A program made the position numbers and the translations under genes. A stretch of DNA of 64,000 nucleotides from an uncultured delta proteobacterium (GTDB lineage Bacteria > Desulfobacterota > Syntrophobacteria > Syntrophobacterales > Syntrophobacteraceae): assembly GCA_963808625.1 (NCBI GenBank), contig CAWEHK010000025.1:86048-150047 (forward strand), given 5' to 3'. The number at the start of each line of letters is the position of its first letter. The first letter of the stretch is position 1. The notes beneath the pieces are model-generated. The model was not told where the DNA came from. It saw nothing but the letters and a program-made list of their open reading frames with translations, and made no database searches. Below are positions 311 to 16,800 of the stretch, piece by piece.

Positions 311-2932
311 ATGAGCCCAACGGATGATCTGAAATGGCTTCGTGGAGGACGTCGTTTGATCCGGATGCTGGCTTCCGCCGGCTTGTTCTTCCTCCTGCTT
401 CTAGCGGCGGGGTCGGGACCTCGGGCCGAAGGAACGGGCGCCGATGCCTTCCTTCGGTTTACGGCCGGCGGTCATGTTCTGGGCTTCGGGAAAAGCGCCC
501 TGTACGTTGCCTCAGCCAACCACATGGTAAAGGTCGATTTGGCTGGAGGACGCGCGGTGGCGCCAGCCATGGAAGAAGGCGCGGTGTCAGGGGCGGGAGG
601 CGCTTCCGGCAAGGCGCCGCCCCTCAGCCGGGTTGCCTACTCGGAGGTATGGGATGGGGTAACGGTGATTTATGAAAAGCAGGACGACGCCATCTTGGAG
701 AGCTCCTATGAGATAAAGGCGGGCGCAGGGAGAAAGGCTCTCGAACAAATCCGCCTGCACTACAACCGGCCGGTGCGTCTTGATGAGCAAGGCGATCTGA
801 TCATCCCCTGCAAAACCGGAGCGATGCGCGAACGCGCGCCAGTAGCGTGGCAGGAGACCGGCAGCGGGAGAAAGTACGTGACCGCGGCGTATCGCCTCAT
901 GAGCGAGCATGAGGTCGGGTTCGAGGTGGGTGACTACGAGGGTGGGCTTCCCCTCATGATCGACCCGACCATGACCTGGAACACCTTTCTCGGCGGCAAT
1001 GATACGGATCAAGGCTATGGCATCGCTGTGGATGGAACTGGCAATGTCTACGTAGTAGGGGACAGTAATGACACCTGGGGCTCGCCTGTGCGCGCTTTTC
1101 AGGGTAACGGTGACGCCTTTGTGACGAAGCTTGACAGCAGTGGCAATCTTCTCTGGAGCACCTTCCTGGGCGGCGACGACTTCGATGAAGGCTTCGGCAT
1201 TGCCGTGGATGGCAACCTGACCGCGAATGTTTACGTGACAGGATATAGTTGGGCCGGTTGGGGCGAGCCCGTGCAGGGATTTTCTGATTACAGCAACGCC
1301 TTTGCGGCGAGGCTCGCGAGCAATGGTGCGGTTGTCTGGAATACCTTTCTGGGCGGCGGCGAAGCAACAACCTATGGCCAAGCCATTGCTGTGGACAGTA
1401 ATGCGACTGCGAATGTCTACGTGACCGGCTGGAGCGATGCCTCATGGGGTCCTTCGCCAGTCAGGCCTTACACAGGTTTGGATGATGCCTTTGCGGCCAG
1501 GCTCGGAAGTACTGGTGGGCTTGTCTGGAACACTTTTCTGGGGGGCAGCGGACAGGATGCCGGCTATGGCATTGCTGTGGATCAAAATGGCAACGTCTAC
1601 GTAGCAGGGGACAGCAATACCACGTGGAGCGAGGTACCGGTTCGACCATTTTCCGCCGGCGCGGACGCCTTTGCGGCGAAGCTTGACAGCAGCGGCAGTC
1701 TTACCTGGTATACCTTCCTGGGCGGGAGTGGCGAGGATCACGGAACCGTCATTGCGGTGGATGGCAATGCGACGGCAAACGCCTACGTGGCCGGATTCAG
1801 CTATGCTTCCTGGGGCTCGCCCGTCAATGCCTACTCGGGGGATGTAGATGCTTTTGCGGCCAGGCTTTCGAGCAATGGCGGGCTCCTTTGGAACAGCTTC
1901 CTGGGGAGCGAGAGCTATGATGACGGCCTTGGCATTGCCGTGGATAGAGACGGAAGTGTGCTTGTGACGGGTACCAGTACCGCCTCGTGGGGCTCGCCCC
2001 TGAGGGCGTTCTCGAATGCCGACAATCCCTCCGCCCACGATGCTTTTGTGGCAAAACTGAGTAGCAGTGGTTGGCTGACCTGGAATACCTTCCTCGGCGG
2101 CGAGCTGGCAACTACGTATGGCACGGCTGTAACCGTGGACACGATTACAAATGTCTACGTGACAGGTTATAGTGATTACACTTGGGGCTCGCCGGTGAGG
2201 GCACATTACCCATACGACCCGAACTCCAGCACCCTTGATGACGCCTTCGTCGCCAAGCTCCCGTCCACACCAACCCTGGTCGAGGTGGTTTCATTTCGTG
2301 CCAAAGCCGGAAGGGATTACATCGAGCTCACCTGGGAAACGGCTTCCGAGGTCCGGAACGTCGGCTTTTTCCTGTGGCGAAAAGGGAGCGGGGAGCGCTC
2401 CTCCGCCCGCATCAGCGGGTTCATTCCGTCCGAGAGCTTGTTTACCCTGGGCGCGAAGTATACCTATAAGGACATCGATGTGTTGCCGGGTGTCACCTAC
2501 CGATACCGCCTGGAGGATGTCGATATCCACGACGGGAGAAGCTTTCACGGCCCGGTGGCGGCAACCATCGGCGATATCGTCACGGTCGCCCCGAAGCAGG
2601 GGAAAAAGGTCCCGGTTCGACCACGTCCTCGTTTCAGGTGGACCAGCGAGTACTTCGACCGGTTCCGGCTGGAGTTCTCGGCAAGCCCCGGTTTTGAGTC
2701 AAAACAGGTGGTCGCCATCCCTCTGCCGAAAACTGGAGTAGCTGCCGCAAAGACCCCGTGGCTCACGGCCCAGTCCTACACGCCTTTGGCTCGGGAATGG
2801 AAAGCGATCAACCGGCTTGGCTCCGGTGGCGGGCGCGTGTATTGGCGCGTAGAGGGGAAGAACAAACTGGGCGCCACGTTCCGCTCCAAAGCGAGTCATT
2901 TTTCCCTGGACCTCGGGCCTGCGTCCCAATGA
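311..2932 (+). CDS. Secreted SBBP-repeat (beta-propeller) surface protein with a C-terminal PT-x-V-xx-F...W.T..E....GF domain and a basic tail domain
   Basis: Signal-peptide-like N-terminus; about 7 repeats of WNTFLGG..D.G.GIAVD..GNVYV.G.S...WG.P...DAF.AKL; PTLVEVVSFRA...WETASEVRNVGF...Y.Y.D...PGVTYRYRLEDVD domain. Confidence 0.88.
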   Translation: MSPTDDLKWLRGGRRLIRMLASAGLFFLLLLAAGSGPRAEGTGADAFLRFTAGGHVLGFGKSALYVASANHMVKVDLAGGRAVAPAMEEGAVSGAGGASGKAPPLSRVAYSEVWDGVTVIYEKQDDAILESSYEIKAGAGRKALEQIRLHYNRPVRLDEQGDLIIPCKTGAMRERAPVAWQETGSGRKYVTAAYRLMSEHEVGFEVGDYEGGLPLMIDPTMTWNTFLGGNDTDQGYGIAVDGTGNVYVVGDSNDTWGSPVRAFQGNGDAFVTKLDSSGNLLWSTFLGGDDFDEGFGIAVDGNLTANVYVTGYSWAGWGEPVQGFSDYSNAFAARLASNGAVVWNTFLGGGEATTYGQAIAVDSNATANVYVTGWSDASWGPSPVRPYTGLDDAFAARLGSTGGLVWNTFLGGSGQDAGYGIAVDQNGNVYVAGDSNTTWSEVPVRPFSAGADAFAAKLDSSGSLTWYTFLGGSGEDHGTVIAVDGNATANAYVAGFSYASWGSPVNAYSGDVDAFAARLSSNGGLLWNSFLGSESYDDGLGIAVDRDGSVLVTGTSTASWGSPLRAFSNADNPSAHDAFVAKLSSSGWLTWNTFLGGELATTYGTAVTVDTITNVYVTGYSDYTWGSPVRAHYPYDPNSSTLDDAFVAKLPSTPTLVEVVSFRAKAGRDYIELTWETASEVRNVGFFLWRKGSGERSSARISGFIPSESLFTLGAKYTYKDIDVLPGVTYRYRLEDVDIHDGRSFHGPVAATIGDIVTVAPKQGKKVPVRPRPRFRWTSEYFDRFRLEFSASPGFESKQVVAIPLPKTGVAAAKTPWLTAQSYTPLAREWKAINRLGSGGGRVYWRVEGKNKLGATFRSKASHFSLDLGPASQ

Positions 2933-2960
2933 GAATCCAGCCGTGGTGATATGGTTGCCG

Positions 2961-3059
2961 GTGCCGGCGGCAATGAGGACTCACGCTTCCTCGGGCAAAC
3001 CCCGGTTCCTGCTGGATATTTGCAGCATCCCTGGTGATCCGGCCTTGACGATGAAATAG
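2961..3059 (+). pseudogene. Relic of the extreme C-terminus of a C25 (gingipain-like) peptidase
   Basis: Translates VPAAMRTHASSGKPRFLLDICSIPGDPALTMK*, which aligns without gaps to [29 protein letters not shown] at the end of the C25 domain at 10778. Confidence 0.75.
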
Positions 3060-3387
3060 AGGGGCGGAAATCAGATTTTCCTATTGCTTTCAGGCGCATA
3101 ATATTGTTATACGTAATCGTTGTTATGTAAATGAATCGGGGGTCGTCACAAACCAACCTCTTGCGCTAACGAAGAATTGTAAACACATAAATTCAATCAC
3201 TTATGACAGCGTCCCGGGGTGACGACCCTTGCGTTTGCGTCACATTGTTCGAGAACTGCTGCCGACGGTGCCGTAGCAAGGTCGGGGTTTATTTTCATCC
3301 CTCAGGGTGAACCGTGCTCCCCGTTCATGCCTGTTAAGCCTGGCACAGCGCCGCATAGAAGCGTGTCCAGGTTCCGTGCTTAGATGC

Positions 3388-3552
3388 GTAGGTTGGGTTT
3401 CGTTCCGTTGCGAAACACGCAGATAGTTTTGAATGTCCCGGGGAACGAAACCCAACAAGGGCCGACCAACTGAAGCGGAATGTTGGGTTTCCTTCCTGAT
3501 CAGTCACGGCATTGTGAACCGCAATCATGGTGAGGAACGAAACCCAACCTGC
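3388..3552. repeat. GTAG-type REP pair (two long hairpins, BIME-like)
   Basis: GTAGGTTGGGTTTCGTTCC...GGAACGAAACCCAAC, then GTTGGGTTTCCTTCC...GGAACGAAACCCAACCTGC. Confidence 0.75.
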
Positions 3553-3608
3553 GAGGCTGTTGAACGTGGTATTGTCTTTCCCCCTGAGATGAGTTTTGAG
3601 AGGCAGCA

Positions 3609-3896
3609 ATGAGCTTGGCGGCACAACCTATCCCCAATCCGGCAGTGCTTTTTCGAGAGGTACCCATGGATGAGTGGGCCGTCCTGTTCAATCCGGAGAA
3701 CTTCTGTGCGATGTCCCTCAATGCCACCGGCGTGGTCGTGTGGAAATTGATCGACGGGCGGCGCACGATCGCGGAGATCGTCGCGGGGGTGAAAGCCCAT
3801 TTCAAGGACGTGCCGGACACGGTAACCGACGATATCGCCGCCCTGCTGAAAGTACTGAGTGGCGACGGTTACGTGGGGTATGAGGTAACCGCATGA
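3609..3896 (+). CDS. PqqD-family RiPP recognition element (ScmD-like)
   Basis: P.PNP.V.FRE..DEWAVLFNP......LNATGVVVWKLIDG.RT...I....F pattern; GAGG RBS. Confidence 0.88.
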   Translation: MSLAAQPIPNPAVLFREVPMDEWAVLFNPENFCAMSLNATGVVVWKLIDGRRTIAEIVAGVKAHFKDVPDTVTDDIAALLKVLSGDGYVGYEVTA

Positions 3897-4180
3897 AGAC
3901 AAGACAGTATGTGGCCAATCCGGTCGTCTCCTGCCGTGAGGAGGAAGGGGGCGCTGTGCTCTTCAATCCCGATACCGACGATATGGTCATCATCAACCCC
4001 ACCGGCCGGGTGATCTGGGACTTTCTCGCGACCCCTCGCAATACGGTGCAGGTAGCGGCTCACGTCGTAGAAAAGTTCCAGGGGGTTTCCCCCGAGCAGG
4101 CGGCGACCGATGCCGAAGCTTTCCTTCAGTCCCTGCTGCCGGACTTTATTCTGGAAGCGGAGGGGACTGATGAAGCCTGA
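3893..4180 (+). CDS. Second PqqD-family RiPP recognition element
   Basis: ANPVVSCREEEGGAVLFNPDT....INPTGRVIW; 4-nt overlap with the upstream gene (translational coupling). Confidence 0.88.
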   Translation: MKTRQYVANPVVSCREEEGGAVLFNPDTDDMVIINPTGRVIWDFLATPRNTVQVAAHVVEKFQGVSPEQAATDAEAFLQSLLPDFILEAEGTDEA

Positions 4181-5312
4181 GTCGATGGCGGCCATGGACC
4201 TGACCGTCCCACCCAAGGGTGTGCCCCCGGCCCCGAGAACGGTCGACCTGTCTCTTACGGGTCGCTGCAACTTGCAATGCCGCTATTGTTTTTTCGCGGA
4301 CTCGATGGCTGCGCTCACCGATCTCCCAACGGTGTCATGGCTCTCTTTCTTTGAGGAGCTTGGTGAGCTGGCGGTGCTGCGGGTGACCCTCTCCGGCGGG
4401 GAGGTCTTCACTCGCCCCGACTTGTTTCAATTGCTTGACGGCATCATCGCCGCCAGGATGCGCTATAGCCTGCTCTCCAACGGCACCCTCATCACCGAGC
4501 AGGTGATCCGCCGTTTTGAGGAAGGCAAGCGCCGTTTGCGCCTGGATTCCATCCAAATCTCCATCGATGGTTCCTGTGCCGAGGTCCACAACCGCAGTCG
4601 TCCGCCGGACAGCTTCGACCGCGCCCTGAATGGGCTCAAGCTGCTCAAGGCGAACGGCTTTCCGGTGACGGTCCGGGTTACGGTGAACCGGCATAACCTC
4701 GACGACCTGGAAAACATTGCCCGTTTGCTGCTGGAAGATATTGGCCTGAGCGGGTTCGGTACCAATGAAGTTGAATTCATGGGCGCCGCCCGCTGCCACG
4801 GCCAGGAAGTGGTGCTGACGCCGGGAGAGCGCCGGCAGGCCATGGCTGCCCTGGTCGCCCTGAACGAGAAATATGAGGGCCGCATCAGCGCCAATGCCGG
4901 GCCCCTCGCCGCGGCAAAGTCATTCTCGGACATCGAAGCCAGGCTGGCCCAGGGGGAGACGCACATGCCGGGTCGGGGGACCCTCTGCTCATGCGGCGGG
5001 GTCTTCAGCAAGATGGCAGTCCTCCACGACGGCGCGATGGTCCCCTGCGACATGCTCCCCACTCTGGTCATGGGCAGGGCGGGCAAAGATCCCTTGCGCG
5101 ATGCCTGGCTCCATCACCCGGCCATCAACGCCGTGCGAGCCCGGCGGGAGGTCCCCCTCAGCTCGCTCGCCACCTGCCGGGGCTGCCCTTACACCGGGTT
5201 CTGTGCGGGTGGGTGTCCGGCGTCGGTGATGGCCAAATATAGTCGTCTCGATGCCCGCGACCCCCTTTGCTGCTACCGGATCTACCGGGGAGAAGAGAGG
5301 GTTGATGGTTGA
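4170..5312 (+). CDS. scmE: Radical SAM/SPASM protein, SynChlorMet ScmE-like
   Basis: CNLQCRYC motif, SGGE, SNGTLI, SIDG; SPASM Cys set (CSCG...PCDM...CRGC.....CAGGC...CC); ATG at 4170 after GGAGG. Confidence 0.85.
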   Translation: MKPESMAAMDLTVPPKGVPPAPRTVDLSLTGRCNLQCRYCFFADSMAALTDLPTVSWLSFFEELGELAVLRVTLSGGEVFTRPDLFQLLDGIIAARMRYSLLSNGTLITEQVIRRFEEGKRRLRLDSIQISIDGSCAEVHNRSRPPDSFDRALNGLKLLKANGFPVTVRVTVNRHNLDDLENIARLLLEDIGLSGFGTNEVEFMGAARCHGQEVVLTPGERRQAMAALVALNEKYEGRISANAGPLAAAKSFSDIEARLAQGETHMPGRGTLCSCGGVFSKMAVLHDGAMVPCDMLPTLVMGRAGKDPLRDAWLHHPAINAVRARREVPLSSLATCRGCPYTGFCAGGCPASVMAKYSRLDARDPLCCYRIYRGEERVDG

Positions 5313-5356
5313 TAGTTGATGGTTGATAGTTGAGGGTTGAGGGTTGATGGTTGATA
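5300..5356. repeat. Heptamer microsatellite (GGTTGAT-like) overlapping the scmE stop
   Basis: ggttgat ggttgat agttgat ggttgat agttgag ggttgag ggttgat ggttgat. Confidence 0.85.
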
Positions 5357-5380
5357 TGCTCGTTTGGGTTGATAACCTTG

Positions 5381-5545
5381 ATTTTGGCGGACTTGGGAAT
5401 TAACCGCAGAGCACGCTGAGATCGCAGAGAAAGCCAATGATTCTTTCTGTGGCCTCTGTACTACTAAGGTTCAAATTGTTTAAATCTTATCAAGATTTTT
5501 GCTTAACTTTTTGTTTTCTCCGCGTTCTCTGCGTTCTCTGCGGTG
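5381..5545. repeat. Inverted CGCAGAG-nonamer repeat element (empty form)
   Basis: TTAACCGCAGAGCACGCTGAGATCGCAGAG on the left, CTCCGCGTTCTCTGCGTTCTCTGCGGT on the right; flanks homologous to 32920-33325. Confidence 0.8.
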
Positions 5546-5613
5546 GAAGAATAAATATTTGAACCTTTACGAGTATGGTTGATGGATCTACCAGGGAGAA
5601 GAGCTTGAGTTCC

Positions 5614-6783
5614 ATGAGCTTGTGTGATTTTATGGAACCGGATAACGGCCAGAGCGGACCGCTGCCCCAGGATCTGCCCGAGGGCGTGCCGCCGCTTCGA
5701 GCCTTTTACCTTTATCTCTCCACCAGCTGCAACCTGCGCTGTCGCCACTGCTGGATCACCCCGAGCTTTGTCGACGGCATTCCGGCTGGCCGAGGACGTA
5801 ATTCCGGTGGAAGCGCTCCGGGATGCCGTGATCGAGGCCAAACCGCTGGGCCTCTGCCACGCCAAGCTGACTGGCGGGGAACCCCTCCTGCACCCGCGCT
5901 TTGTCGGAATCGTGGACATGCTGACGGCCGAGGGGTTGCAGATGAATATGGAAACCAACGGCACGCTGATGACTGCCGAGCTTGGCCGCCATCTCAAGGA
6001 GAAGACCAACGTCAGCTTCATCTCGATCAGCCTGGATGGGGCCGACGCCAAAACTCACGACCGGTTTCGCGGCGTGGTCGGGGCTTACGATGCGGCGTTG
6101 AGAGGATTGGCGCACCTGACGGATGCTGGATACAGCAACGTTCAGGTGATCATGAGCGTCCATCGCGGCAACCTGGACCAGATCGATGGCCTGGTGCGGC
6201 TGGTGGCGGACCGCGGTGCGGGATCGGTCAAGTTCAACCCGGTTAGCTTTGCCGGGCGGGGAACCACCATGCATGAGCGGGGGGAGACCCTGGACTACGA
6301 GGAGCGGATGGCCCTGGCCGCGGCCGTTCGAGAGGAGTTGCCAGAGACGTTTCTCCATCCCCCTCATCTGCTTTCATCCACCGGCCCAGAAATCCATGCG
6401 GCACCTGTGGGATACCTCGCCGACAGCCCACCGATTGCGGGGTCCGCCACATTCTGGGCATCCTGGGGACGGGGGACATTGCCTTGTGCGGGATCGGCCG
6501 GACCGTCCCCGAGCTGGTCTACGGGCAACTGGGGAAAAACAGCATCCGGGAGATCTGGTTGACACATCCCACGATCCTCGAGCTCCGCCGGCTTCTGGAC
6601 GACTTCAGGAATTTTCCCGGCATATGCGGCCGGTGCATCCATGCCAAAACCTGCCGCACGGGCTGTGTCGCGATGAACTATGTCGACGCTCGGCAACTCG
6701 TCTGGCCGGACCCGCTGTGCCAGGAGTCAGAACGACGAGGGCTGTTTCCGGCCAGCCGGAAAAGGAAATCCGGCGGCCCTTGA
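5614..6783 (+). CDS. scmF: Radical SAM/SPASM protein, SynChlorMet ScmF-like (frameshifted in the assembly)
   Basis: YLYLSTSCNLRCRHCWI; KLTGGEPLLHP; ETNGT; SLDG; C-terminal CGIG...GICGRCIHAKTCRTGC...PLC, spread over three frames. Confidence 0.8.
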
Positions 6784-6854
6784 GCAGCGAACACCTCAAG
6801 GAAAGCACATCATAGCAATCGAGTACACGTGGGCCGAAATAAGTAGCCAGTTCC

Positions 6855-6928
6855 GGTGGGCACGGTGAAGCTGTGCCCACCCTACAGTGTTCCCGGACCC
6901 GTAGGGTGGGCAGGTTTTTTGCCCACCG
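6855..6928. repeat. GTAG-type REP pair
   Basis: CGGTGGGCAC...GTGCCCACCCTAC and GTAGGGTGGGCA...TGCCCACCG in inverted arrangement. Confidence 0.75.
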
Positions 6929-6985
6929 CAAACATGCACGAACTTATACCCATGTGTACTAGAGAGATGAGTGTTCATGAGGGCC

Positions 6986-7001
6986 TGGCATTATTTATGC
7001 A
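6986..7001 (+). promoter_or_regulatory. Putative sigma-54 -24/-12 promoter upstream of the precursor gene
   Basis: TGGCATTATTTATGCA, GG-N10-GC spacing. Confidence 0.55.
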
Positions 7002-7030
7002 TCTCAACAGTCGAAAGTTGCGTTTGTTCT

Positions 7031-7122
7031 ATCATTCTGGATGCCCGCCAGAAGCACGCGGGCATGACGATAGTTGGCCTGTTGCCGCACCGTCATTCCC
7101 GCAGGCTTTTGGCGGGAATCCA
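7031..7122. repeat. GTCATTCCCGC...GCGGGAATCCA REP pair
   Basis: TGGATGCCCGCCAGAAGCACGCGGGCATGAC and GTCATTCCCGCAGGCTTTTGGCGGGAATCCA. Confidence 0.75.
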
Positions 7123-7209
7123 GAAACTGAGACAAATCTAGGATTTCACCCTTAACGAGTATAGAATGATCATTTTCATGTATAATGAACCTTTGCAGGG
7201 AGAAGCGAC

Positions 7210-7449
7210 GTGTTGAAAAATGGAAAGGACGATCTGACGGACCGGCGGCCAACATACGAACCACCACAGGCCTTACGCATGGATGATATCCATGCAGGGG
7301 CAGGTGGGCAGGATTGTACCTCTGGCGCTAGCGCTGGAGGTGCTAACTGCGCTACGGGCGGCGCCGCTATCGGTGGACAGTGTATTAGTCCAGGGACTTC
7401 TGCTGCTACTGGTCAATGTAAATTTGGTGATGGAGCCTCTACATTTTAG
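7210..7449 (+). CDS. Putative RiPP precursor peptide with a YxxP leader and a four-fold Cys/Gly/Ala repeat core
   Basis: RPTYEPPQALRMDD leader; core CTSGASAGGAN-CATGGAAIGGQ-CISPGTSAATGQ-CKFGDGASTF; GGAG RBS; lies among RRE and rSAM genes. Confidence 0.82.
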   Translation: MLKNGKDDLTDRRPTYEPPQALRMDDIHAGAGGQDCTSGASAGGANCATGGAAIGGQCISPGTSAATGQCKFGDGASTF

Positions 7450-7472
7450 GGCGCAAGACTTACGGAGCTTTT

Positions 7473-8440
7473 GTGCCATGGGTGGAGGAACTCGATGAAA
7501 GCAGGGACCGGCGGATGGGGTTCGATTCGTCTCAAAAGAACTTTGGGGTCTTCTCCTGCGGGGGGGTTACTCTGATTCTAACACCATCCTCCACATATAG
7601 CCTTCCCCTTGCTGACGGGACCTGCTGGCTGGTTCGGGCCGGCGTCCCGGAGGCTGAGCACGTGGTGGCCCGTCTTGGAGCGGCTATGGAACTGCCGCCG
7701 GGCGGCGGCTCCGGCCGGGAACTGGTGGTTGGGTTCCACGGCCACCAGGCTTCCTCACCTGCTGCCCTGCGTGCAGCCCAGGGACCATCAGTGTGTCTGG
7801 TGAGCCCTCCCTGCAACGGGGAGAGGTTCGCCTTTCAGGCTATGCAGATATCCATGACCATCGTCAGGGATGCGCAGGTCCGTGGGGGATTGCTCATTCA
7901 CGGCGCGCTGGCCGCGTGGCAGGGGTCCGCTGAAAAGGCCGGCGGAATGGTTTCGGGTGCCATCATGGCGGGGCCGGGTAGCGTCGGGAAGACTACGGCC
8001 AGCAGTCGCCTGTCCGGCCCCTGGCGGTCCCTCAGCGATGACATGACCCTGGTGGTTCGTGACCCTCAAGGCCATTACTGGGCGCATCCCTGGCCCACCT
8101 GGGGGCGGTTTTTGGAAAATGCGGCCGGCGTTTCCTGGCCGGTGCCGCAGGGCCGTGCCCCTGCGGGCCGTTTTTTTCCTTTCCCAATCGCCCAACGACT
8201 CGGTAACCCCACTCAACACCGCCCAAACAATCGCCCTGCTGATCGAATCCGTGCAGCAGGCCTCCTCGCCCATGGTCTGCGCGTTGCCGGAGACCGAGGC
8301 TGCGGCTGTCTATGAGGAACAACTGGCGGCGGCCAGCGAGCTCGCCCGGACCATCCCTGCCTACCGGCTCAGCATAAGCCTGGACGGCGCCTTCTGGAAG
8401 GAAATGGAAAGCGTGCTCGCGGCGGCCCCAGCCCGCCCGG
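7473..8440 (+). CDS. scmC: HprK-like P-loop protein, SynChlorMet ScmC-like (frameshift near 8150; start uncertain)
   Basis: GLLIHGAL, Walker A GPGSVGKTT, LSDD, AHPWPTWG, AVPLRAVFFL.QS, ISLDGAFW. Confidence 0.75.
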
Positions 8441-9128
8441 TTGCATCTCGCCGAGCGTCACCCCCTTCGCCTCGGGTGCGACTGCCCGGAAGGTCCCCCG
8501 CTGCCGGTCGTCTACACCGGTCCCAGCATGAACCCCACCCTGCAGGGAGCCGGACCTGCTGGAGGTGGTCCCTTACGACGGAAGAGCGGTGTGCAAGGGG
8601 GACGTCATCTATTTCCACCCGCCGGGTGGGGGGCTCGCGGTCGTCCACCGGGTCGCGCGGGTCTTGCGGGAAGGCGTCCGCACCCGGGGAGACAACAACC
8701 CGATGGAAGACCCTTATTCTGTGCCTCATTCGGCCATTATCGGGCAGGTCGTAGCCGCGCAGCGGGATGGGCGTCGCCGCCGCGTCGCTGGCGGCTGGCA
8801 AGGCCGGATGCAATACCACCTGGCGAGGCTTGAAGGCACCGCGCTGCGCCTGGGCCAGAGACTCTTGAGCCGGCTGTACCAGGGGCTGGCAAGGTCCGGT
8901 CTCTTTCGCCAGGTCCTCCCCCCGAGGCTCACCCCCCGCCTGGTCGGGTTCGAAACGAGACGCGGCAGGCAGCTCAAGGTGATGATGGGAAGCCGTGCGG
9001 TAGCCCACTACCACCCGCTCGGGAGAGTGTGGCAGGTTCGTCGGCCCTTTCGCCTGTTTGTGGATGAGGCCGTTCTGCCCCGGCCCGAGAGCGAATTCCC
9101 TCAATCAGCCCCAGCGCTGGTGAAATAA
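8441..9128 (+). CDS. S24/S26-family signal-peptidase-like protein, possibly fused to ScmC (frameshifted)
   Basis: YTGPSMNPTL (catalytic Ser), GDVIYF, VVHRV, TRGDNN...D, IIGQV motifs. Confidence 0.75.
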
Positions 9129-9164
9129 CTGCAAGCAGATACCAGAACGCCCTCCATCTTTTTT

Positions 9165-9250
9165 ATCCACGAATTCACACGAAGATTTGTGAAGACACAC
9201 GAAGAACTCACTTCGTGGTCTTCGTGATCTTCGTGCTCTTCGTGGTGAAA
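9165..9250. repeat. CACGAAG-type inverted nonamer repeats (a further copy at 9833-9866)
   Basis: CCACGAATTCACACGAAG...ACACGAAG facing CTTCGTGGTCTTCGTGATCTTCGTGCTCTTCGTGG. Confidence 0.7.
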
Positions 9251-9424
9251 GATAAGGTGGTCTTTTGATTCATGCGCAGGGCCGGGTCCGCCAAGAACGC
9301 TGACCACGGTGATGGAGACTGGGTTGGGCATTGTACTGAAGCAGCCCAGTGGATCGGTAACGCGGACCGTGCAGGCCCCAAGCGGCGAAATGGAGAAGCG
9401 GTAGTGTGGTCGTCATGATCAAGT

Positions 9425-9526
9425 CTAGATGAAGACGTATTGCCCCTGCGTTGCTATAATGTCCACGGCATCGGGCAGTCCCTCGGCAAAGTCACAGTAA
9501 GTGTTGGTATCAAGGACCAGCTTCAC
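9425..9526 (-). pseudogene. vapC: Truncated VapC/PIN toxin
   Basis: GTG start overlaps the antitoxin stop; MKLVLDTNTYCDFAEGLPDAVDII... stops after 33 codons. Confidence 0.65.
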
Positions 9527-9762
9527 TCCCAGTCCCCTTCGTGGATCTCATTGAAGACCCGTAGTGAAGCTCGCAGCTCATCCGCTTCCTCGCGAGTCAT
9601 CCAACCCGCCAGCTCACGAACCAGCTTTTCGCGATTTTTCAGCAAGCCAAGCTTTTCATCAATAGCCTCAAGGATAAAAGCCGTCTTGGATTTTCCGGCT
9701 CTTCCTGCAACTTTTCGAATTATCGCCTCTTTCTCAGAAGGAATCCTCAGACTCACGGGCAT
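9523..9762 (-). CDS. Ribbon-helix-helix (CopG/VapB-like) antitoxin
   Basis: VSLRIP....I...A...GKSKTAFILEAI RHH pattern; GGAGG RBS; precedes a PIN start. Confidence 0.75.
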   Translation of the reverse strand: MPVSLRIPSEKEAIIRKVAGRAGKSKTAFILEAIDEKLGLLKNREKLVRELAGWMTREEADELRASLRVFNEIHEGDWE

Positions 9763-10029
9763 GGTTGATCACCTCCATGTATCGCCTTCGTGCGTTTTGT
9801 ATCTCAAATGGAGGGTGCTGTCAATTTTCTTCATCCACGAAGACACACCAACACGAAGACACACGAGCCTCTTGCAAAACTCAATAAGACCGTCACCCCG
9901 CTAGAAATGGCGGATACATCGGAAGTCACTGACCTACACTCTAGCGCGCATCCTCTCTACTCGGCGGTCAAAGCTATACCAGTTAAGGATGAGATAATAC
10001 GTTTTGATATGCTGGCTGAATGATGAATG

Positions 10030-10585
10030 CCCTGAAAGGGCTTCATAAGATAGCCCAGGGTCAGCGACAGCGCCACCCTGGGTGGGGACACCCGATCCCA
10101 TTTTGCCTTACCCTGAAAGGGCTTCAAAATACCCAGGGTCAGCGACAGCGCCACCCTGGGTGGGGACACCCGATCCCATTTTGCCTTACCCTGAAAGGGT
10201 TAGAGCGTGTCTGAAAATTCCCCCTAAAGCTGGTTCCCAAGCTCTGGCTTGGGAACCCACCTCCTTGGAAGCTCCAGCTTCGTCGGACTTGTGGATACCA
10301 TCTCATACTCAAGACGCACGGGAAGCTGGAGCTTCCGTACCTGCGTTCCCAAGCTGGAGCTTGGGAACGAGCGAACGAGCTCCCCGACTCTTTTAAAGGT
10401 GGGTCGGAGGGATTCTTCCTTCAAGTTTTGCGCAAAATTTGAATTTTCAGACAGCCTCTTAGATAAATCGGTGTGTCGGTGTCTTCTATGTAACCCCTTC
10501 AGGGTAGATATTGGTGGTTGTGCTTGGCCCCCAGGGTGGCGCTGGCGCGCTGACCCTGGGCTAATTTATCAAGCCCTTTCAGGGC
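10030..10585. repeat. Nested REP/MITE complex
   Basis: Two ~80-bp CCCTGAAAGGG...CCCAGGGTCAGCG..CGCCACCCTGGG units, with an inverted partner at 10492-10585; interrupted by a 10200-10462 element with TGTCTGAAAATTC terminal inverted repeats enclosing GTTCCCAAGCT...CTTGGGAAC palindromes. Confidence 0.8.
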
Positions 10586-10620
10586 AGAAAAGTGGCCCGC
10601 TGCAAAGTTTGCCAAATAGC

Positions 10621-10650
10621 AAAGACCCCCCGGCAAAACCGGAGGTCTTT
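10621..10650. terminator. Hairpin downstream of the giant gene, possible intrinsic terminator
   Basis: AAAGACCCCCCGG-CAAAA-CCGGAGGTCTTT. Confidence 0.45.
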
Positions 10651-10668
10651 GACTGGGTTAAGCGCTTC

Positions 10669-10801
10669 AGATGACCCCTTATTTCATATGCAGGGGGTGA
10701 TCGATGACCCCTTATTTCATATGCAGGCGGGGGTTGATGACCGCCTGCTTCATCTGCAGGGCGGGGTCGATGACCGCTTACTTCATCTGCAGGGCCGGAT
10801 C
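10669..10801. repeat. Four degenerating 33-bp tandem copies of the C25 gene 3' end
   Basis: Minus strand units GATCCGGCCCTGCAGATGAAGTAAGCGGTCATC / GACCCCGCCCTGCAGATGAAGCAGGCGGTCATC / AACCCCCGCCTGCATATGAAATAAGGGGTCATC / GATCACCCCCTGCATATGAAATAAGGGGTCATC. Confidence 0.85.
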
Positions 10802-13800
10802 ACCGAGAATGTTGTAAAGGTCGATCTCGAACCGCGGCTGCCCATGCGAGCTATAATAGGTCACCGCCGAAATCACGGCGTCGCCGAGGACCCTGGTGCC
10901 GTCCTCGAAGAGGGCCTTGAACAGTCCTTCATCAAGAAGGTGGGCATAGACGTTGTAGGATAGCCCGGTGGGCACCCACCCGGCAATGATCCCGCCACCC
11001 TGCCGCAGCACCAGGGTTTCAGCGAGGGTATCGTAGTTCGGCATCCCAAAATTGCCCATCGAACAGGACATCGCCGCCAACACGGGAAGGCGTTCGGCGT
11101 TGTTGAGACCGGCCACATCACCGGTTAGCAGAATGGCCTCCACCGTCAGCCGATCGGTGCCCGCATGGCCGATGTAGTTCATCAGCAGGGCGCCGCTGTT
11201 GATGCGCCGCAAGCAGCTTGGTGCGCGCCGCGCTGCCGCCGTCCGCCGTGCTCACGTAAATCTTGTTCTGCGCATTCTTGTAGGCAGAGGGAAGGGTATT
11301 GAAGAGCCCATCGCTGTCTGCCTGGAAAGTCCCGCCATCATCCGGGTTGTCGGCCACCATCAGCACCTGCTGCGTCCAGGCGCCGCCACTCGAACCTTCA
11401 TACGCCTTGATCTTCCCGATCATGGTCCCCAATTCCGCCGCCGTCAGCACCGGCAGCCTCCCAATCGCCATCTCCGGCACCCCGTCGTTGCCCACGAGGT
11501 CGACAAAGCGACCGTCACCGACGAAGAGACCATCAGGCGTCCCCACCATGAGCGGGGGCACGAGACAGTCACCATAACCGCGGATGTTCCGATAATCATA
11601 GGTCCCCTCTCCGACCAGCACCACATAACGGGGCGCCGGCTTCTGCCAGCTGTTATAGGTGTATGCCAGGAAGGTCTTGATCGCTTCCGGTGAGTAACAC
11701 TCCGTAGTTGAACTCGTCCACGACATCCTGGAAGTCCACCACCATGCTTTTCAGCCCGTGCACGCTGCGGTAGTCCGCCAGTTCCTGGGCGGCCGCCTTC
11801 AGCAGCGCCGGGGCGATGATCAGGTAGTCAGCCCGGTTCGTCGTCTTCTTCAAGGTCGACACCTGGTCGGCAGCTACGGAAACCGGCTGCTTCACCGCCC
11901 CTCCCGTCAGGACGAGATAAGGCGTCGTCGGGGTGGCCGGGACGAAGCTCGCCCGGTAGCGCCCGGCAGCCGGCTGATCCACCGTAAGCGCCGTCACCTG
12001 GCGCGGCTTCCTGGGATCAGTCAGGTCGAACACACTGATTCCCGCGTCGCTGAACCCGTCCACGCTCACCACCGCATTGCCGTCTCCCCGGGCGATCAGT
12101 TGCCCGTTCACCGCTTGATAGGTGCGCGCATAGGTGACGTCGAAGGAGTCTACATAGAACAGACTATAGGACACGCCGGGGTCGAGAACGGCCGTGACCT
12201 GCACCGTGTTGTTGCCATCCTGGAGCAGCGAGGCGTCGAAGGTCACCTGAAATCCGTGGGCAGTCATTCCCAGCCAGGTGCTCTCGCCAACGCTTTGGCC
12301 GTTGAGCGTCACCCGGGCGTGGTGCTGCGTCGCCGTGTCGCCCACCAGTTGCACCTTGAGGGTTCCCTGACCGCTCCCGGCGGCCCCCGGCAGATTGATG
12401 GTGAAAGCCTTGCTCCCGTAAGTTGGATTGCCGCCAACCACAAAGTCCCAGACCCAGAAATCGGCCGCCGGATCGGTAAAGCTTGCCGTCGCGCCGATTT
12501 GTCCTGCTCGAAATGCAGGGTTTCCTGGAACGTCTTGCCGGTCACCGCCTTCGGTCCCTTGCCTTTGAGAGTGGCCATGCCCGTGCCGGTCCCGATTTCA
12601 AGCCAGTAAACATTATCTCTCGTGTAAAGGCTGTCGATTCCCTCCGCATAGAAGGTCATGCCCGCGTTTCCGCCGGCCACGCTGTAAGCCACCGGCAGAC
12701 CCCGTTGGTGAGCGCAAACCGGTTTCCTTTCAGATACAGGGCCACCGTTGCCGGCGACATCCCAAAGGCCGATCCGATCGTTGCTTTATCCAGATAGTAG
12801 AGCCCGTTCTCCCGCACGGTAATCCTGGCCCTGCCCGTAGGCGCCGCGGCGGCGGTCAAGGTCGGACTGTCTGCTGACAAAGGCTGGCCGGTGGCGGTTA
12901 GCTCTTGGCTCTTGGCTCTTAGCTCTTGGGCTAAGACGCCCTGGCGGTTGGCCGCGGCCTGCTCGGCCTTCATCGCTTCGAGACGCGCCTTCCTGGCAGC
13001 CGTCATGCCGTAGGGTTTCCGGCTGTAGCCGGACACCAGGGTTTCGTTGTCCAACTCGGCGCGAGCCTGCTTCGACAAGCCGCGGGCGGCAGGACTCGGG
13101 GCCTCGGAAACCACGCTCACCGTCCAGGGCCCGTAGACGTTCTCCTGACCCTTCGTCACCACCTCGACGAGGCGATACCGGTAGGTCTCGCCCGGTGTCG
13201 CCGAGCCGTCAACATACTGGTAGACACCGCCCTCGGGCGAAGTCAGCAGACCCGGCAGGAGATGATCGTTCAGCCGCAGGTAGTCCCCGCTCGCCGCCTC
13301 GAAACGCTCCAGGTAGAAGCCCACCGTACCCACCTCACCCGACGTCTGCCACGAGACGATGACTTGACCGCCCTGCTCATGGACATGGAAGGAAGAGATG
13401 AGCGCATAGGTCGGGGTGGGCGACTTATAGCCGAAGTCATTGCCGGTCGAGTTGAGCGTTGTTGATCGTCACCGGCTGCATCCATCCCGTGGCGCTGGAC
13501 TGGGTGGTCTGGGTCAGGCCGGCCGCCGTGGTGCCCGCAGTCTGCACCGCGATGAGATACTTGCCATTGGGCAGGTCCGTGAAGCTATAGGTGCCGTCCG
13601 AGGCGCTGAGCGTGTAGCCGATCTGAGGATCGCTCGCATCCAGCTTTCCGTCACCGTTCAGGTCGCGGTACAGCAGCACCGCAGCCTGTTGCACCCCGGC
13701 CTCTCCCGAATTCCACGCTCCGCTGCCGTTGGTGTCGATGAAGACCTTACCGCTGGCAAGATAGCCTGTTCCTGCCTTGTAGCCAAAGTCCGCCGTGTAG

Positions 13801-16800
13801 TTGGTAACGCCGGCCCCCGAGGCGGTCAACGTGACCGCATAGGGATTGGCCTGGCTGTAGTTATCGCTCCCGGGACTTGTTCCCGTGGTCTTGTTAAACC
13901 CGCTCAGGACACTGGTTGCCACCACCTGGACCTGGTACTTGGCCGGAGGCAGGCCGCTGAAGACATACTCCCCATTGGCATTGGTCGTGGTGGTCCGGAC
14001 CAGGTTGTCGATCCCCGCATGGATGGCGGTATCATTGTTGTCCAGGTTGAGCCAGAGCTGCACCGTTACTCCCTGGATGCCCGGTTCCCCGGCGTCACGG
14101 AAGCCATTGCCATTGAGGTCATGCCATACCAGGTTACCGATGGCGCCCATGTTTGCCGCCCGATAGCCGAAATCGGCATCGTTGTAGACGGGCGACCCGC
14201 TGTTCAGGGTAATCGACCCGGTCGGGTTGGCGCCCGATGTCAGGGTCAGGCCGCTCACCGCGCCGTTCAGGTCACTCACCTGCACGGTATAGGTGCCGAA
14301 AGGGACCCCATAGAAATGATAGGTGCCGTTGTCATCGGTAGTCGTGGTGCCGACAACGACGCCGCTGTTGTTCAACAGATTGAGCGTCACCCCGCCGATG
14401 CCTTCACCCGCATTGAAGGTGTCACTGGCATTGCTATCCAGGAACACCTTGTCGCCGATGGTGCCGACGGAAGCGGTCGTATCGTCCTTGAAGCCGAAGT
14501 CAAGGGTCAGGTTAGCAGTGTTGGCCGGGATGCTCACCGTCTGGTTCACCGACCCGGTGGTCGGGGTCGGATTGTAGCCGGTGGGTGGCGTTACCGTCAC
14601 GGTGTAGGTCCCCGGATCATAACCGGTGAAGCGATACGTCCCGTCCGCAGCCGTGGTCGTGGTGGCGATGGTCGTACCGCCGTTCTTCAGCGTCACCGTC
14701 ACCCCGCCAATCCCCACTTCACCCGGGTCCTGGATGCCATTGTTGTTGGCATCGGAGAACACGGTGTCGCCCAGGGTTATCTTACCGGTGGCGCTGCCGT
14801 AACCGAAGTCGGCGTTCTCGTAAATCTGGCCTTCGCCCAGGTTGATGACGCCGGTCGGGTTAGTGCCCCCGGTCAGCGCCAGGCCGGTCAGCACGCCGCT
14901 GGTATCGGTAACTCTTACCTTATAGCCGCCCGCAACCAGGCCCTGGAATTCGTAGAACCCGGCGGCGTCGGTGGTGGTGGTGGTCGCGTTGTTGTCGTCG
15001 CCTGTTCCGAAGACCCCATCCGCCCCGGCATACACGAGCCTCAGGGTGACCCTGGAAATCCCGGCCTCACCCGCATTCTGCACGCCATCGCCATTCGCAT
15101 CCAGCCACACCCGGTCGCCGATGCTCCCGGTCGCCCCTTCGCGCACATAGCCGAAGTTGACATTGGTGACGCTGGTCGTCCCGACGACCGACACCGGATA
15201 CTGATCCAGACCGCTGGTCAACTGGTAGCCGTTCAGGACCCCGCCCTGATCGGTCACCTTGACCGTATAGCTCCCGGCCGGCACATCAAAGAAGCTGTAG
15301 GTGCCGTCGGCAGCCGTCGTGGTGGTGGCGATCACTTTGCCGGTGCTGTCCACGAGGGCCAGGGTCACCCCGGCCAGGCCGTTTTCACCGGCGTTGATGG
15401 CCGCATTCTTGTTGAGGTCGTTCCACACCGTTCCGGAAATATCCGCCAGTCCCGTATTCTGGAAGCCAAAGTCGGCGGTCAGGTAACGTGGGCTGGCTCG
15501 TGGTCACGAAACCATAGTCGTCAGTGGTCACCGAGCCGCTGCCGTTGACATCGAGCTGCCCCGCGATAACTTTCATGCCGTTCCACCAGCCGTTGTCGGA
15601 GGCATCTGCCGCACCGCTGCCGTTGAGGTCAAGCTTGCCGCTGATACACGGCGACCCCGTTGGCCATGCCGGTGTCGCTGCTGTTGATCGTGCCGTCCCC
15701 ATTCATATCGAGCAGGCCGCCAATGACCCGCACGCTGACGGCGCCCGTGCTGAGCGTGACGTCGATTTCCGTGCTGTTCGCCGTGGCCGGTTCCTGGTCT
15801 TTCGTCATGCGGGTGTAGCCGCTGAGAGCGGTCTGGGTGTCGGTCAATGCTGACGAAATAGGTCCCGGCGGCTAAGTCGTTGAAGTAGTAATGGCCGCTG
15901 CCGTCGGTCGTGCATGGTCGATGGAAATGTAGGTGCCCGCGATTGAAGATGCCGTCGCCGTTGTGTCCCGGTAGAGCGTGACCGTGACGCCGGCGATGCC
16001 CGGCTCACCCAGCATCCTGGAAGGCCATCGCCGTCGTGGTCGCTGAACACCGTGTCGCCTATCGGCCCCAGGCCCGCGTAGCCGAAATGTTCACCCGTAA
16101 GGCTGGCGCTGGCGATGGTCTCGCCGCGATAGCCCGCCTGGGCATCAGCCGTAGTGCCCTGGTAGTTGATGAGCTGCCCGGCGTTGTCGGCGATTTCCAT
16201 GACGTACTTGCCATTGGGCAGGCCGTTGAAGGAGAAGTTGCCATTGCTGTCCGTGTAGTCGGTGGCGATCACCGGATCCACCAGGATCGTCCCGTTATCG
16301 CCGGCTGCCGACGCCGCCGCTGCGGTTCATATCGAGCATGCCGTCGAATGACGGGAAGCCCATGTAGGCGCCGTCGTCGCCGGTATCAATACCATTGTTG
16401 CCGTTGAGATCCAGTTTCCCGCCGATCACCTTGATGCCCTGGGCCACCGTGCCATCGTCGGCGGCGGTGACATTCCCATCGCCATTGAGGTCAAGGAGGC
16501 CGTTGATCACGTGGGCGGTGACATTCCCGTCGCCGTTGAGGTCCTGGTAGAGGTTCACCGAGACCCCGGCAATGCCCGTCTCACCGGGACTTACCAGCCC
16601 GTCGCGGTTGGCGTCGTACCAGACTTTATCGGTAATGGAATAGAGACTGGTATTGCGATAGCCAAAGTCGGCGTCGAGATACACCTGGCCGGCGGCCACC
16701 GTGATCGGGGCGGTCGGATCGGTGTTCGACTGGGCCCCGGTGATGAGCGTATAGCCCGCCGGCGGCGTCGTGACGTCGACAATATACGTACCGGGATCGA

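Follow-up and report, generated by a model that had tools for sequence, protein, structure and literature searches.

A divergent ScmA-type precursor peptide with periodic cysteines in a SynChlorMet cassette of an uncultured deltaproteobacterium

The open reading frame (ORF) at 7210-7449 (+) of a 64,000-nt stretch of DNA from an uncultured member of the Syntrophobacteraceae (assembly GCA_963808625.1; the whole stretch is called the window hereafter) is a real and conserved gene, placed where ScmA sits in related cassettes. On its sequence, the encoded peptide is a divergent ScmA-type precursor, a kind already curated as TIGR04252 whose product chemistry is undescribed. The cassette around it, of the SynChlorMet (SCM) type, runs in the order ScmD, ScmD, ScmE, ScmF, ScmA, ScmC::S26. 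The name reportedly refers, in the TIGRFAMs description, to Syntrophobacter, Chlorobium and Methanocella genomes. A literature search found no publication on the SCM cassette or its chemistry, and the texts of two surveys of rSAM-modified RiPPs, PMC10288494 and PMC10114670, do not contain "Scm", "TIGR0425", "SynChlor" or "HPr". The scheme that we favour, and hold to be rather probable as a whole, is that the leader of this precursor would be bound by recognition elements for ribosomally synthesised and post-translationally modified peptides (RiPP recognition elements, RREs), that the radical S-adenosylmethionine (rSAM) enzymes ScmE and ScmF would close thioether rings at its Cys residues, that the S26 domain would cleave off the leader, that ScmC would phosphorylate the core, and that the frame breaks seen in the cassette would be assembly errors.

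Read from the window sequence, the frame has 79 codons followed by TAG (residue numbers below are those of this peptide). The start codon is GTG 7210, with TTG 7213 as an alternative, and a Shine-Dalgarno-like run, GGGAGAAG, at 7198-7205 (+) ends 4 nt 5' of GTG 7210. A start at the in-frame ATG 7279 (M24) was ruled out, since the conserved leader is found upstream of this codon. The leader (7210-7305, +; residues 1-32) carries the motif T15-Y-E-P-P-Q-A-L-R23; its Y16-E-P-P19-Q-A21 and the later G30-A-G32 are aligned to positions Y0, P3, h5, L8, G9, G14 and G16 of the family leader. The core (7306-7446, +; residues 33-79) is rich in Gly, Ala, Ser and Thr and consists of four C-x2/3-G-x-x-A units, C-T-S-G-A-S-A, C-A-T-G-G-A-A, C-I-S-P-G-T-S-A and C-K-F-G-D-G-A, whose Cys residues stand at 36, 47, 58 and 70, that is, at intervals of 11, 11 and 12. 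The boundary between both parts, with a predicted cleavage after G32, is placed by inference. C36, G39, G50 and C58 are invariant columns in the alignment of relatives (A3), and C47, C70 and G73 are conserved in at least 90%. An earlier note, made from the letters of the window alone, had described this frame, its leader TYEPPQALR, the 11/11/12 spacing of four Cys in C-x2/3-G-x-x-A units and the Gly/Ala/Ser/Thr-rich core, and a renewed reading of the translation agrees with it on each point; it had also taken the ORF for a precursor-type peptide within an rSAM/SPASM cassette, which is borne out by the NCBIfam matches of the neighbours. Around the gene, a lone TATAAT lies upstream at 7182-7187, a scan of 6700-7600 found a single terminator-like site (6898-6910, within a dispersed repeat described below), and an Rfam search of 6600-7600 gave no match at E<=1.

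Conservation of the gene was assessed with a leave-one-out profile, made from 144 database relatives with the window peptide excluded and run on the 1430 stop-to-stop frames of at least 25 aa in the window. The window peptide scored 48.1 bits (E 7.5e-14), the second-best frame of the window 8.3 bits, and 1000 shuffled versions of it reached 9.5 bits at most. Both parts contribute to the score, the leader alone giving 14.5 bits with zero bias and the core alone 18.1 bits. The peptide has no Pfam or NCBIfam match, a word-indexed homologue search with it returned no candidate, its exact sequence is absent from a 15-billion-protein collection, and neither a protein search nor a profile search found a ScmA paralogue in its own genome. 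When one genome per species was scanned with ScmE as the query, 72 related loci were obtained (labelled L with a number), which hold 7306 small ORFs. Searched against these ORFs by phmmer, the window peptide has relatives with E-values as low as 4.3e-11, and a profile iterated to convergence gathered 45 peptides from 37 of the 72 loci; the earlier note had named the search for comparable peptides at equivalent places of homologous cassettes as a check, and this is its outcome. In 55 loci ScmE is near-full with an identity of at least 40%; 45 of them also have ScmF, and ScmA accompanies both enzymes in 32 of those 45. At least 1 kb is available on both sides of the D-to-F block in 29 of the 45, and ScmA was found in 23 of these 29; in the other six (L008, L018, L021, L023, L046 and L062) it was not found and may lie outside the fetched DNA or have been missed. 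A relaxed search added one 5'-truncated copy only, at the edge of L044.

The family extends well beyond these loci. A profile of 41 peptides (alignment A1), run against 1.84 billion cluster representatives, matched 1810 of them at E<=1e-3, of which 44 have E<=1e-10. The architecture was counted in the best 150 of the 1810, from which six proteins longer than 160 aa were set aside, leaving 144 short proteins of 66-154 aa. Four of the six long proteins (P0002, P0003, P0011 and P0024) are unrelated periodic-Cys tandem repeats and were excluded from these counts; they consist of perfect repeats of 10-11 residues with one Cys each and no leader, reach high scores with the core portion of the ScmA profile, and form a false-positive class for any ScmA census. 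Among the 144 short proteins, [YFW]xxP is present in 142 (Tyr in 140), and the first Cys follows the leader aromatic by 17-30 residues (18 in 70 proteins, 19 in 53, 20 in 6), the distance being 20 in the window peptide. The leader consensus is K(-3)-x-K-Y0-E-x-P3-x-h5-h-x-L8-G9-x-h-A-x-G14-x-G16-x-C; position +5 after the Tyr is V, L, I or A in 85% of the family, and the window peptide reads YEPPQA there. The cores are built of C-x-x-G-x-x-A repeats with a period of 10-12 (569 of 659 Cys-Cys spacings), in which 90% have Gly at +3 after Cys and 64% have Ala or Pro at +6. They are rich in G, A, S, T, C and N, aromatics are rare (Y 2.0, F 1.5, W 0.4%), and the number of units goes from 3 to about 10 or more per peptide. 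The window peptide shows the pattern of this wider ScmA family, namely a Y-x-x-P ... G-x-G leader followed by C-x-x-G repeats of period 10-12.

The link to the curated model came from a scan of the relatives against NCBIfam, which gave matches to TIGR04252, "SynChlorMet cassette protein ScmA" (SCM_precur_ScmA), a model of 49 positions with a curated cut-off of 35 bits. It was matched by 7 of 41 relatives at E<=1 and by 27 of 145 at E<=0.01, the best scores being 23.2 bits and E 6.1e-8 (about 33 bits by scaling), so that none of the 145 relatives tested appears to reach the cut-off. The peptides of L052 and L057 match both TIGR04252 and the family profile and thereby form a bridge to the window peptide, to which the TIGR04252-matching peptides are homologous through that profile. 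What they have in common is a short peptide, encoded with ScmC, ScmD, ScmE and ScmF, in which a K-Y-E-x-P leader precedes C-x-x-G units. The window peptide differs in its distance of 20 residues, instead of 18-19, from Tyr to the first Cys, and belongs to a Y-E-P-P-x-A-x-R-L/M-x-D subtype common to the loci of Methanothrix, Methanoregula and Chloroflexota. Nine relatives are recorded in their source entries as "hypothetical protein" or without a name, and the nearest clusters to the peptide in the ESM Atlas (scores 0.91-0.93) are likewise "hypothetical protein". The precursor family is about two orders of magnitude larger than what the curated ScmA model detects.

The neighbours of the gene are those of an SCM cassette, since the best NCBIfam family of each flanking cassette ORF is an Scm model (ScmD, ScmD, ScmE, ScmF and ScmC). 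ScmD1 (3609-3896, +) is a discrete PqqD-type RRE of 95 aa, with 72 bits against TIGR04248 (cut-off 100) and 54 bits against Pfam PqqD, and ScmD2 (3893-4180, +), also of 95 aa, is a second one, with 37.7 bits for ScmD, 36.3 for lasso_PqqD_Strm and 46.6 for PqqD. ScmE (4110-5312, +) is an intact frame with Radical_SAM and SPASM domains, 388.3 bits against TIGR04250 (cut-off 400) and the motifs CNLQCRYC and CRGCPYTGFCAGGC; its orthologues align from 4170. ScmF (5575-6783, +), the second rSAM/SPASM enzyme, is read in three frame pieces (about 5575-5787, 5795-6376 and 6418-6783), two of which give 168 and 70 bits against TIGR04251 (cut-off 400). Both enzymes have the CxxxCxxC motif and the SPASM motif CxxCx5Cx3C. 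Downstream of ScmA, the ScmC domain (7473-8420, +) contains the P-loop GPGSVGKTT and gives 71.7 and 76.7 bits on two pieces against TIGR04249 (cut-off 125), and the signal-peptidase-like S26 domain of SipW/SEC11 type fused to it (8480-9128, +) gives 38.3 bits against TIGR02228. In L012, L037 and L009 both domains form one ORF of 515-564 aa, which covers window 7602-9116. ScmD, ScmE, ScmF and ScmC of the window all lie under their NCBIfam equivalog cut-offs; intact orthologues give 142-173 bits for ScmC, above 125, and 343 bits for ScmF, below 400. The window cassette is a divergent SCM subtype, in which frame errors fragment two of the genes, ScmF and ScmC.

Two main layouts are found among the loci, and in each ScmA lies next to the other cassette genes: A-D-E-F-S26-C in Desulfobacterota, Lentisphaerota, Aminicenantes and others, and D-D-E-F-A(n)-C::S26, which the window shares with loci of Methanothrix, Methanoregula and Chloroflexota. 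L012, L013, L037 and L009 have the D-D-E-F-A-C::S26 order of the window. The S26 domain is present in 26 of the 30 loci with at least 3 kb downstream and ScmC in 17, which makes the SipW-type peptidase a conserved member of the cassette, commoner than ScmC. The cassette of L012 (5442-12875), from a metagenome-assembled genome (MAG) of Methanothrix, is expanded: besides an intact ScmC::S26 fusion it has four ScmA copies (8321-8527, 10210-10497, 10746-10955 and 11055-11264) and two ScmF paralogues (7097-8284 and 8762-9946). The orthologous cassettes of L012, L013 and L037 are intact and fit for expression.

Among the proposed steps, recognition of the leader is the one in which we place most confidence. 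The ScmD RREs, which are of PqqD type, would bind the YxxPx[A/V/L/I] leader as a beta-strand. The leader sequence YEPPQA fits [Y/W]xxPx[L/V/I/F/A], the motif that is bound by discrete RREs of lasso peptides and of linear polyphosphorylated peptides (LPP) according to the consulted portion of PMC13381572, where mutagenesis and crystal structures are given as proof that the leader motif of LPP is essential for RRE binding. The proposal of the earlier note, that this is a YxxP leader of the RRE-binding type, therefore holds by the motif match to that portion of PMC13381572 and by the two PqqD-type RREs encoded beside ScmA. A prediction of the complex of ScmD1 with leader residues 1-37 obtained a score of 0.49 (best control 0.02), with runs agreeing in at least 90% of contacts; it counts as a likeness only, because solved RRE-leader complexes exist. 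In nine loci PqqD is fused to the N-terminus of ScmE, in ORFs of 462-494 aa (L016, L018, L019, L026, L027, L032, L034, L035 and L061), and in loci of the E-D2-F type the ScmD2 paralogue lies directly upstream of ScmF. These fusions and the place of D2 right before ScmF suggest one RRE per rSAM enzyme, in which case ScmD1 would be the partner of ScmE, and ScmD2 that of ScmF. Two other variants were observed: at L025 (2029-2619) two PqqD domains are joined to each other in a protein of 197 aa, and the ScmA of L083 (G015:C1:2685000-2700000, reverse strand 6336-6575) has a W-x-x-P leader, K-W-Q-V-P, in place of Y-x-x-P, which echoes the W/Y discrimination of lasso and LPP RREs described in the consulted portion of PMC13381572.

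Modification of the core comes second in confidence. ScmE and ScmF, both full SPASM enzymes, would act on the periodic Cys units, and the presence of rSAM/SPASM maturases and RREs encoded beside a Cys-containing precursor is the gene combination by which sactipeptides and ranthipeptides are recognised. Cys thioether cross-linking is the most economical reading that we can infer for the core, because no side chain other than Cys is invariant in the repeats and aromatic residues are scarce; this rarity also disfavours aromatic C-C cross-links. The likeliest product would have one small, un-nested thioether ring per repeat of 10-12 residues, small rings being preferred to nested hairpins because of the strict local period. 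The link could join the sulphur of Cys to the alpha-carbon of the Gly at +3, a residue conserved in 90%, forming a 4-residue sactionine ring, or alternatively reach the Ala or Pro at +6. Gly is reportedly a sactionine acceptor in streptosactin. There is a likeness to type 2 sactipeptides (streptosactin/GggB, QmpB) with their successive un-nested small rings: the consulted portion of PMC9389541 describes for streptosactin a pair of un-nested 4-residue sactionine rings, the ring size that ScmA C-x-x-G would give, whereas the units of ScmA number from 3 to about 10 or more instead of two. Ranthipeptides (freyrasin/PapB, SCIFF/CteB) also have an rSAM/SPASM maturase acting on a Cys-rich core, and freyrasin carries six local Cys-Asp bridges in the account seen of PMC8326336. 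ScmA differs from them in that none of the acceptors Asp, Asn and Thr is conserved at a constant distance, so that a ranthionine to one of these residues is not indicated; the PapB model gives only 53-63 bits against ScmE and ScmF, and two maturases are encoded in the SCM cassette, together with discrete RREs, a kinase and an S26 peptidase.

Removal of the leader and phosphorylation would be the third and the fourth (last) steps in confidence. The S26 domain of the L012 orthologue gives 55.3 bits against TIGR02228 (cut-off 51.85) and aligns to SEC11A/C across S-M-x-P, V-H-R-V and G-D-N-N, and the window has GPSMNP, VVHRV and GDNNPMED across its frame pieces; the curated-model match of the orthologue and the Ser and His motifs place the domain in the SipW/SEC11 (archaeal) type of S26. 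By analogy, the ScmC-fused S26 domain is a likely candidate for the leader peptidase. It would act in an RRE-dependent way, as the consulted portion of PMC13381572 describes for LPP, where a signal peptidase I (SpI)-like peptidase cleaves the leader only with its RRE, and would probably cut after the small-x-small G30-A-G32. This is the conserved G14-x-G16 before the first Cys, which agrees with the small-x-small rule that type I signal peptidases follow; that it is the cleavage rule here is a guess. The earlier note had seen an HprK-like protein in the cassette, and the structural model of the L012 ScmC domain supports a kinase-like fold of the PEPCK/HprK kind. This AlphaFold model (predicted local distance difference test, pLDDT, 84.4; predicted template modelling score, pTM, 0.83) matched PEPCK with Z 12.8 (root-mean-square deviation, rmsd, 5.4 over 247 aligned residues) and HprK/P with Z 9.5-9.7 (1ko7_B: Z 9.6, rmsd 3.3, 126 aligned); the next kinase families had Z of 4.0 or less, and one unrelated entry, 8j9h_E2, had Z 9.9. 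The P-loop G-x-x-G-x-G-K-T is invariant in the ScmC alignment (A4). Pfam Hpr_kinase_C was not matched by the ScmC orthologues at E<=1, and it is the fold search, together with weak matches to TIGR04352, that relates them to HprK. These data support, at the level of a predicted model, a P-loop kinase-like domain of the PEPCK/HprK fold. HprK-like kinases phosphorylate Ser of paeninodin-type peptides (as cited in the consulted portion of PMC13381572), and by analogy with the LPP and paeninodin kinases ScmC would phosphorylate a Ser or Thr of the core.

The closest characterised logic seems to be that of LPP (Nat Commun 2026, PMC13381572), which combines an RRE, an HprK-like kinase and a SipW-like peptidase, a module that the SCM cassette appears to share at the level of its genes: SpI-like peptidase, discrete RRE and HprK-like kinase. 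LPP also has a YxxP leader, and its RRE-dependent cleavage has been shown experimentally, according to the portion consulted of that paper. The likeness has limits. The LPP core set also includes an NTP (nucleoside triphosphate) transferase and an MsbA-like exporter, and neither such a transferase nor an ABC exporter was found among the 21 ORFs scanned at 311-15428, and the leader of the window peptide shares only YxxPx[A] with the LPP consensus YxxPxVLxHQxIxFETxxS given in the consulted portion of PMC13381572. LPP clusters, unlike SCM, have no radical SAM enzyme, the terms for such enzymes being absent from the main text of PMC13381572, and there the cores are described as not periodic in Cys, the leader as ending in F-E-T and the clusters as mostly from Bacillota.

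Several observations weigh against the proposed scheme. The promoter scan of 6700-7600 found no two-hexamer site, and two insertions of the miniature inverted-repeat transposable element (MITE) kind part ScmA from ScmF. The window peptide does not match TIGR04252 at E<=0.01 or at E<=1, nor did a six-frame search of the genome with this model match at 7210-7449. The predicted ScmD1-leader complex supports RRE binding weakly: the pLDDT of the partner is 58, and of 157 solved complexes and 215 mismatches, 116 and 2, respectively, attain the mark that it passes, but only 18 of those 157 complexes, and both passing mismatches, do so with scores of 0.60 or less. The LPP leader ends in F-E-T, not in small-x-small, in the portion consulted of PMC13381572. 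ScmC is present in only 17 of the 30 roomy loci, so that phosphorylation would not be essential to the class. Finally, the window peptide has no acceptor side chain that is conserved at a fixed offset, ScmE scores 67, 63 and 95 bits with AlbA, PapB and StsB versus 97 and 99 with PqqE and AhbD, and a match to MftC (121 bits) extends over the whole of ScmF. By sequence, neither enzyme seems closer to the known thioether synthases than to PqqE, AhbD and MftC, which leaves room for other chemistry.

The most serious alternative is that the peptide is a true ScmA precursor on which ScmE and ScmF perform chemistry other than Cys thioether formation; we regard this as unlikely, with a real share of the probability nonetheless. 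Epimerisation, C-C or C-O links, anSME-like oxidation of Cys or Ser, or a redox or metal-binding cofactor-like peptide with free Cys ligands would come into question. The models of PqqE, AhbD, NirJ and MftC score ScmE and ScmF as well as or better than those of AlbA, PapB and StsB, a conserved acceptor side chain is lacking, and the cassettes occur mostly in anaerobes, all of which speaks for such a reading. On the other hand, Cys alone is invariant among the side chains of each repeat, the aromatics that most known C-C and C-O rSAM links need are rare in the cores, and no C-x-P/A-x-R sulfatase-type motif is visible in the ScmA sequences inspected. ScmA C-termini also vary, unlike those of the mycofactocin and PQQ precursors.

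A second alternative is that the cassette is decaying in this genome and the peptide is a relic no longer matured. ScmF has two frame changes, near 5785 and 6400-6430, as seen from the intact orthologues of L012, L037 and L009 aligned across it, and ScmC::S26 has three, near 8140-8160, 8450-8480 and 8527. Upstream of ScmA, the gap to ScmF measures 427 bp, against about 0-65 bp in relatives, and is filled by two MITE-like dispersed repeats. The first (6819-6963; inverted-repeat pair I2) has 15-nt terminal inverted repeats and at least 17 copies of 84-97% identity on other contigs; the second (7011-7168) has an inverted repeat with 35-nt arms, 7035-7069 and 7091-7125 (pair I1), and several copies, both together giving 47 matches in the genome. 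The profile matches in none of the 7 genomes of the same genus and in only 2 of 40 relatives of the window genome. These five frame changes, the insertions and the sparse distribution favour decay. However, the rpoB and rpoC genes of the same genome (contig C22) were each recovered in five pieces and the Peptidase_C25 gene of the window (10778-12441, -) is split over three ORFs in different frames, from which roughly one indel per kilobase is estimated for this assembly of 54 contigs and 84.6% completeness. As the essential rpoB and rpoC are fragmented too, assembly errors, not decay, are the best reading of the breaks in ScmF and ScmC::S26; moreover, ScmD1, ScmD2, ScmE and ScmA have intact frames, and the catalytic motifs are still present. 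The rpoB match exceeds the cut-off of the bacterial model, which shows the organism to be a bacterium. Decay is accordingly an improbable explanation, and any gene model from this assembly needs a caveat on frame errors.

It is far less probable that the product is a secreted Cys-rich small protein, whose N-terminus would be an ordinary signal peptide cut by the neighbouring peptidase. An S26 signal-peptidase-like domain is indeed encoded next to the gene and a small-x-small motif precedes the first Cys, but the leader, KDDLTDRRPTYEPPQALRMDDIHAGAGG, has no hydrophobic core of signal-peptide length and carries the RRE-binding motif, two RREs and two rSAM enzymes co-occur with the peptide across loci, and the S26 domain is fused to a kinase domain of cytoplasmic type. 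Two further readings are effectively refuted. That of a lasso-peptide precursor can draw on the YxxPx[A] leader motif, which fits the [Y/W]xxPx[L/V/I/F/A] of the lasso leader and its B1 RRE, on the resemblance of ScmD2 to the lasso PqqD model (36.3 bits) and on one family member with a weak match to the lasso_cyano model (E 0.019). It fails on the absence of a lasso cyclase or B2 peptidase family among the 21 window ORFs scanned (311-15428), on a 47-residue core with periodic Cys that is not lasso-like, and on the Scm model being the best family of each neighbour. A chance ORF, suggested by GC-rich surroundings with many overlapping ORFs and by a low-complexity core whose part of the profile also matches unrelated periodic-Cys tandem repeats, is no more credible, given that the peptide scores 48.1 bits where the next frame has 8.3 and the best shuffle 9.5, that the leader scores by itself with zero bias and that the position is kept across 37 loci.

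The surroundings of the cassette add some further observations. Upstream, at 311-2932 (+), lies a gene for an 873-aa SBBP beta-propeller repeat protein with DUF7948, which has no evident link to the cassette. Downstream, in apparently non-coding DNA of lower GC content, there are two tandem repeats, one at 10030-10199 with a 78-nt unit in 2.1 copies (96% matches) and one at 10670-10794 with a 33-nt unit in 3.8 copies. From 13437 to about 20500 (-) the window contains very large, adhesin-like SdrD_B / CarboxypepD_reg repeat genes; the ORF at 13437-15428 has six SdrD_B stretches, and downstream of it there are many overlapping ORFs in different frames, probably frame errors too.

Regarding distribution, the closest ScmE sequences, at 63-67% identity, come from a Chloroflexota MAG and from methanogenic archaea. 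The match in the same family as the window genome (G015, one closed contig) represents a different SCM lineage, 42-46% identical and with unbroken ScmE and ScmF. The SCM cassette is patchy and has probably spread horizontally among anaerobes, judging from these comparisons. Although it is curated in NCBIfam, it is chemically blank, and the window adds no new kind to it; what is gained is a sharper target, in which the leader is a probable ligand of lasso/LPP-type RREs and the RRE paralogues appear to pair with particular rSAM enzymes. A broader claim is tentative, and we hold it to be possible but rather doubtful at present: that the SCM products are a new RiPP class, in which strings of small un-nested rSAM thioether rings, one per C-x-x-G-x-x-A repeat and three to ten or more per peptide, would be combined with an LPP-type module of SipW-like cleavage and HprK-like phosphorylation, horizontally spread among anaerobic bacteria and methanogenic archaea in about 1800 clusters at 50% identity. 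If this is true, a multi-ring thioether peptide from methanogens and syntrophic anaerobes would be a new scaffold, and possibly a molecule of signalling or antagonism in anaerobic consortia.

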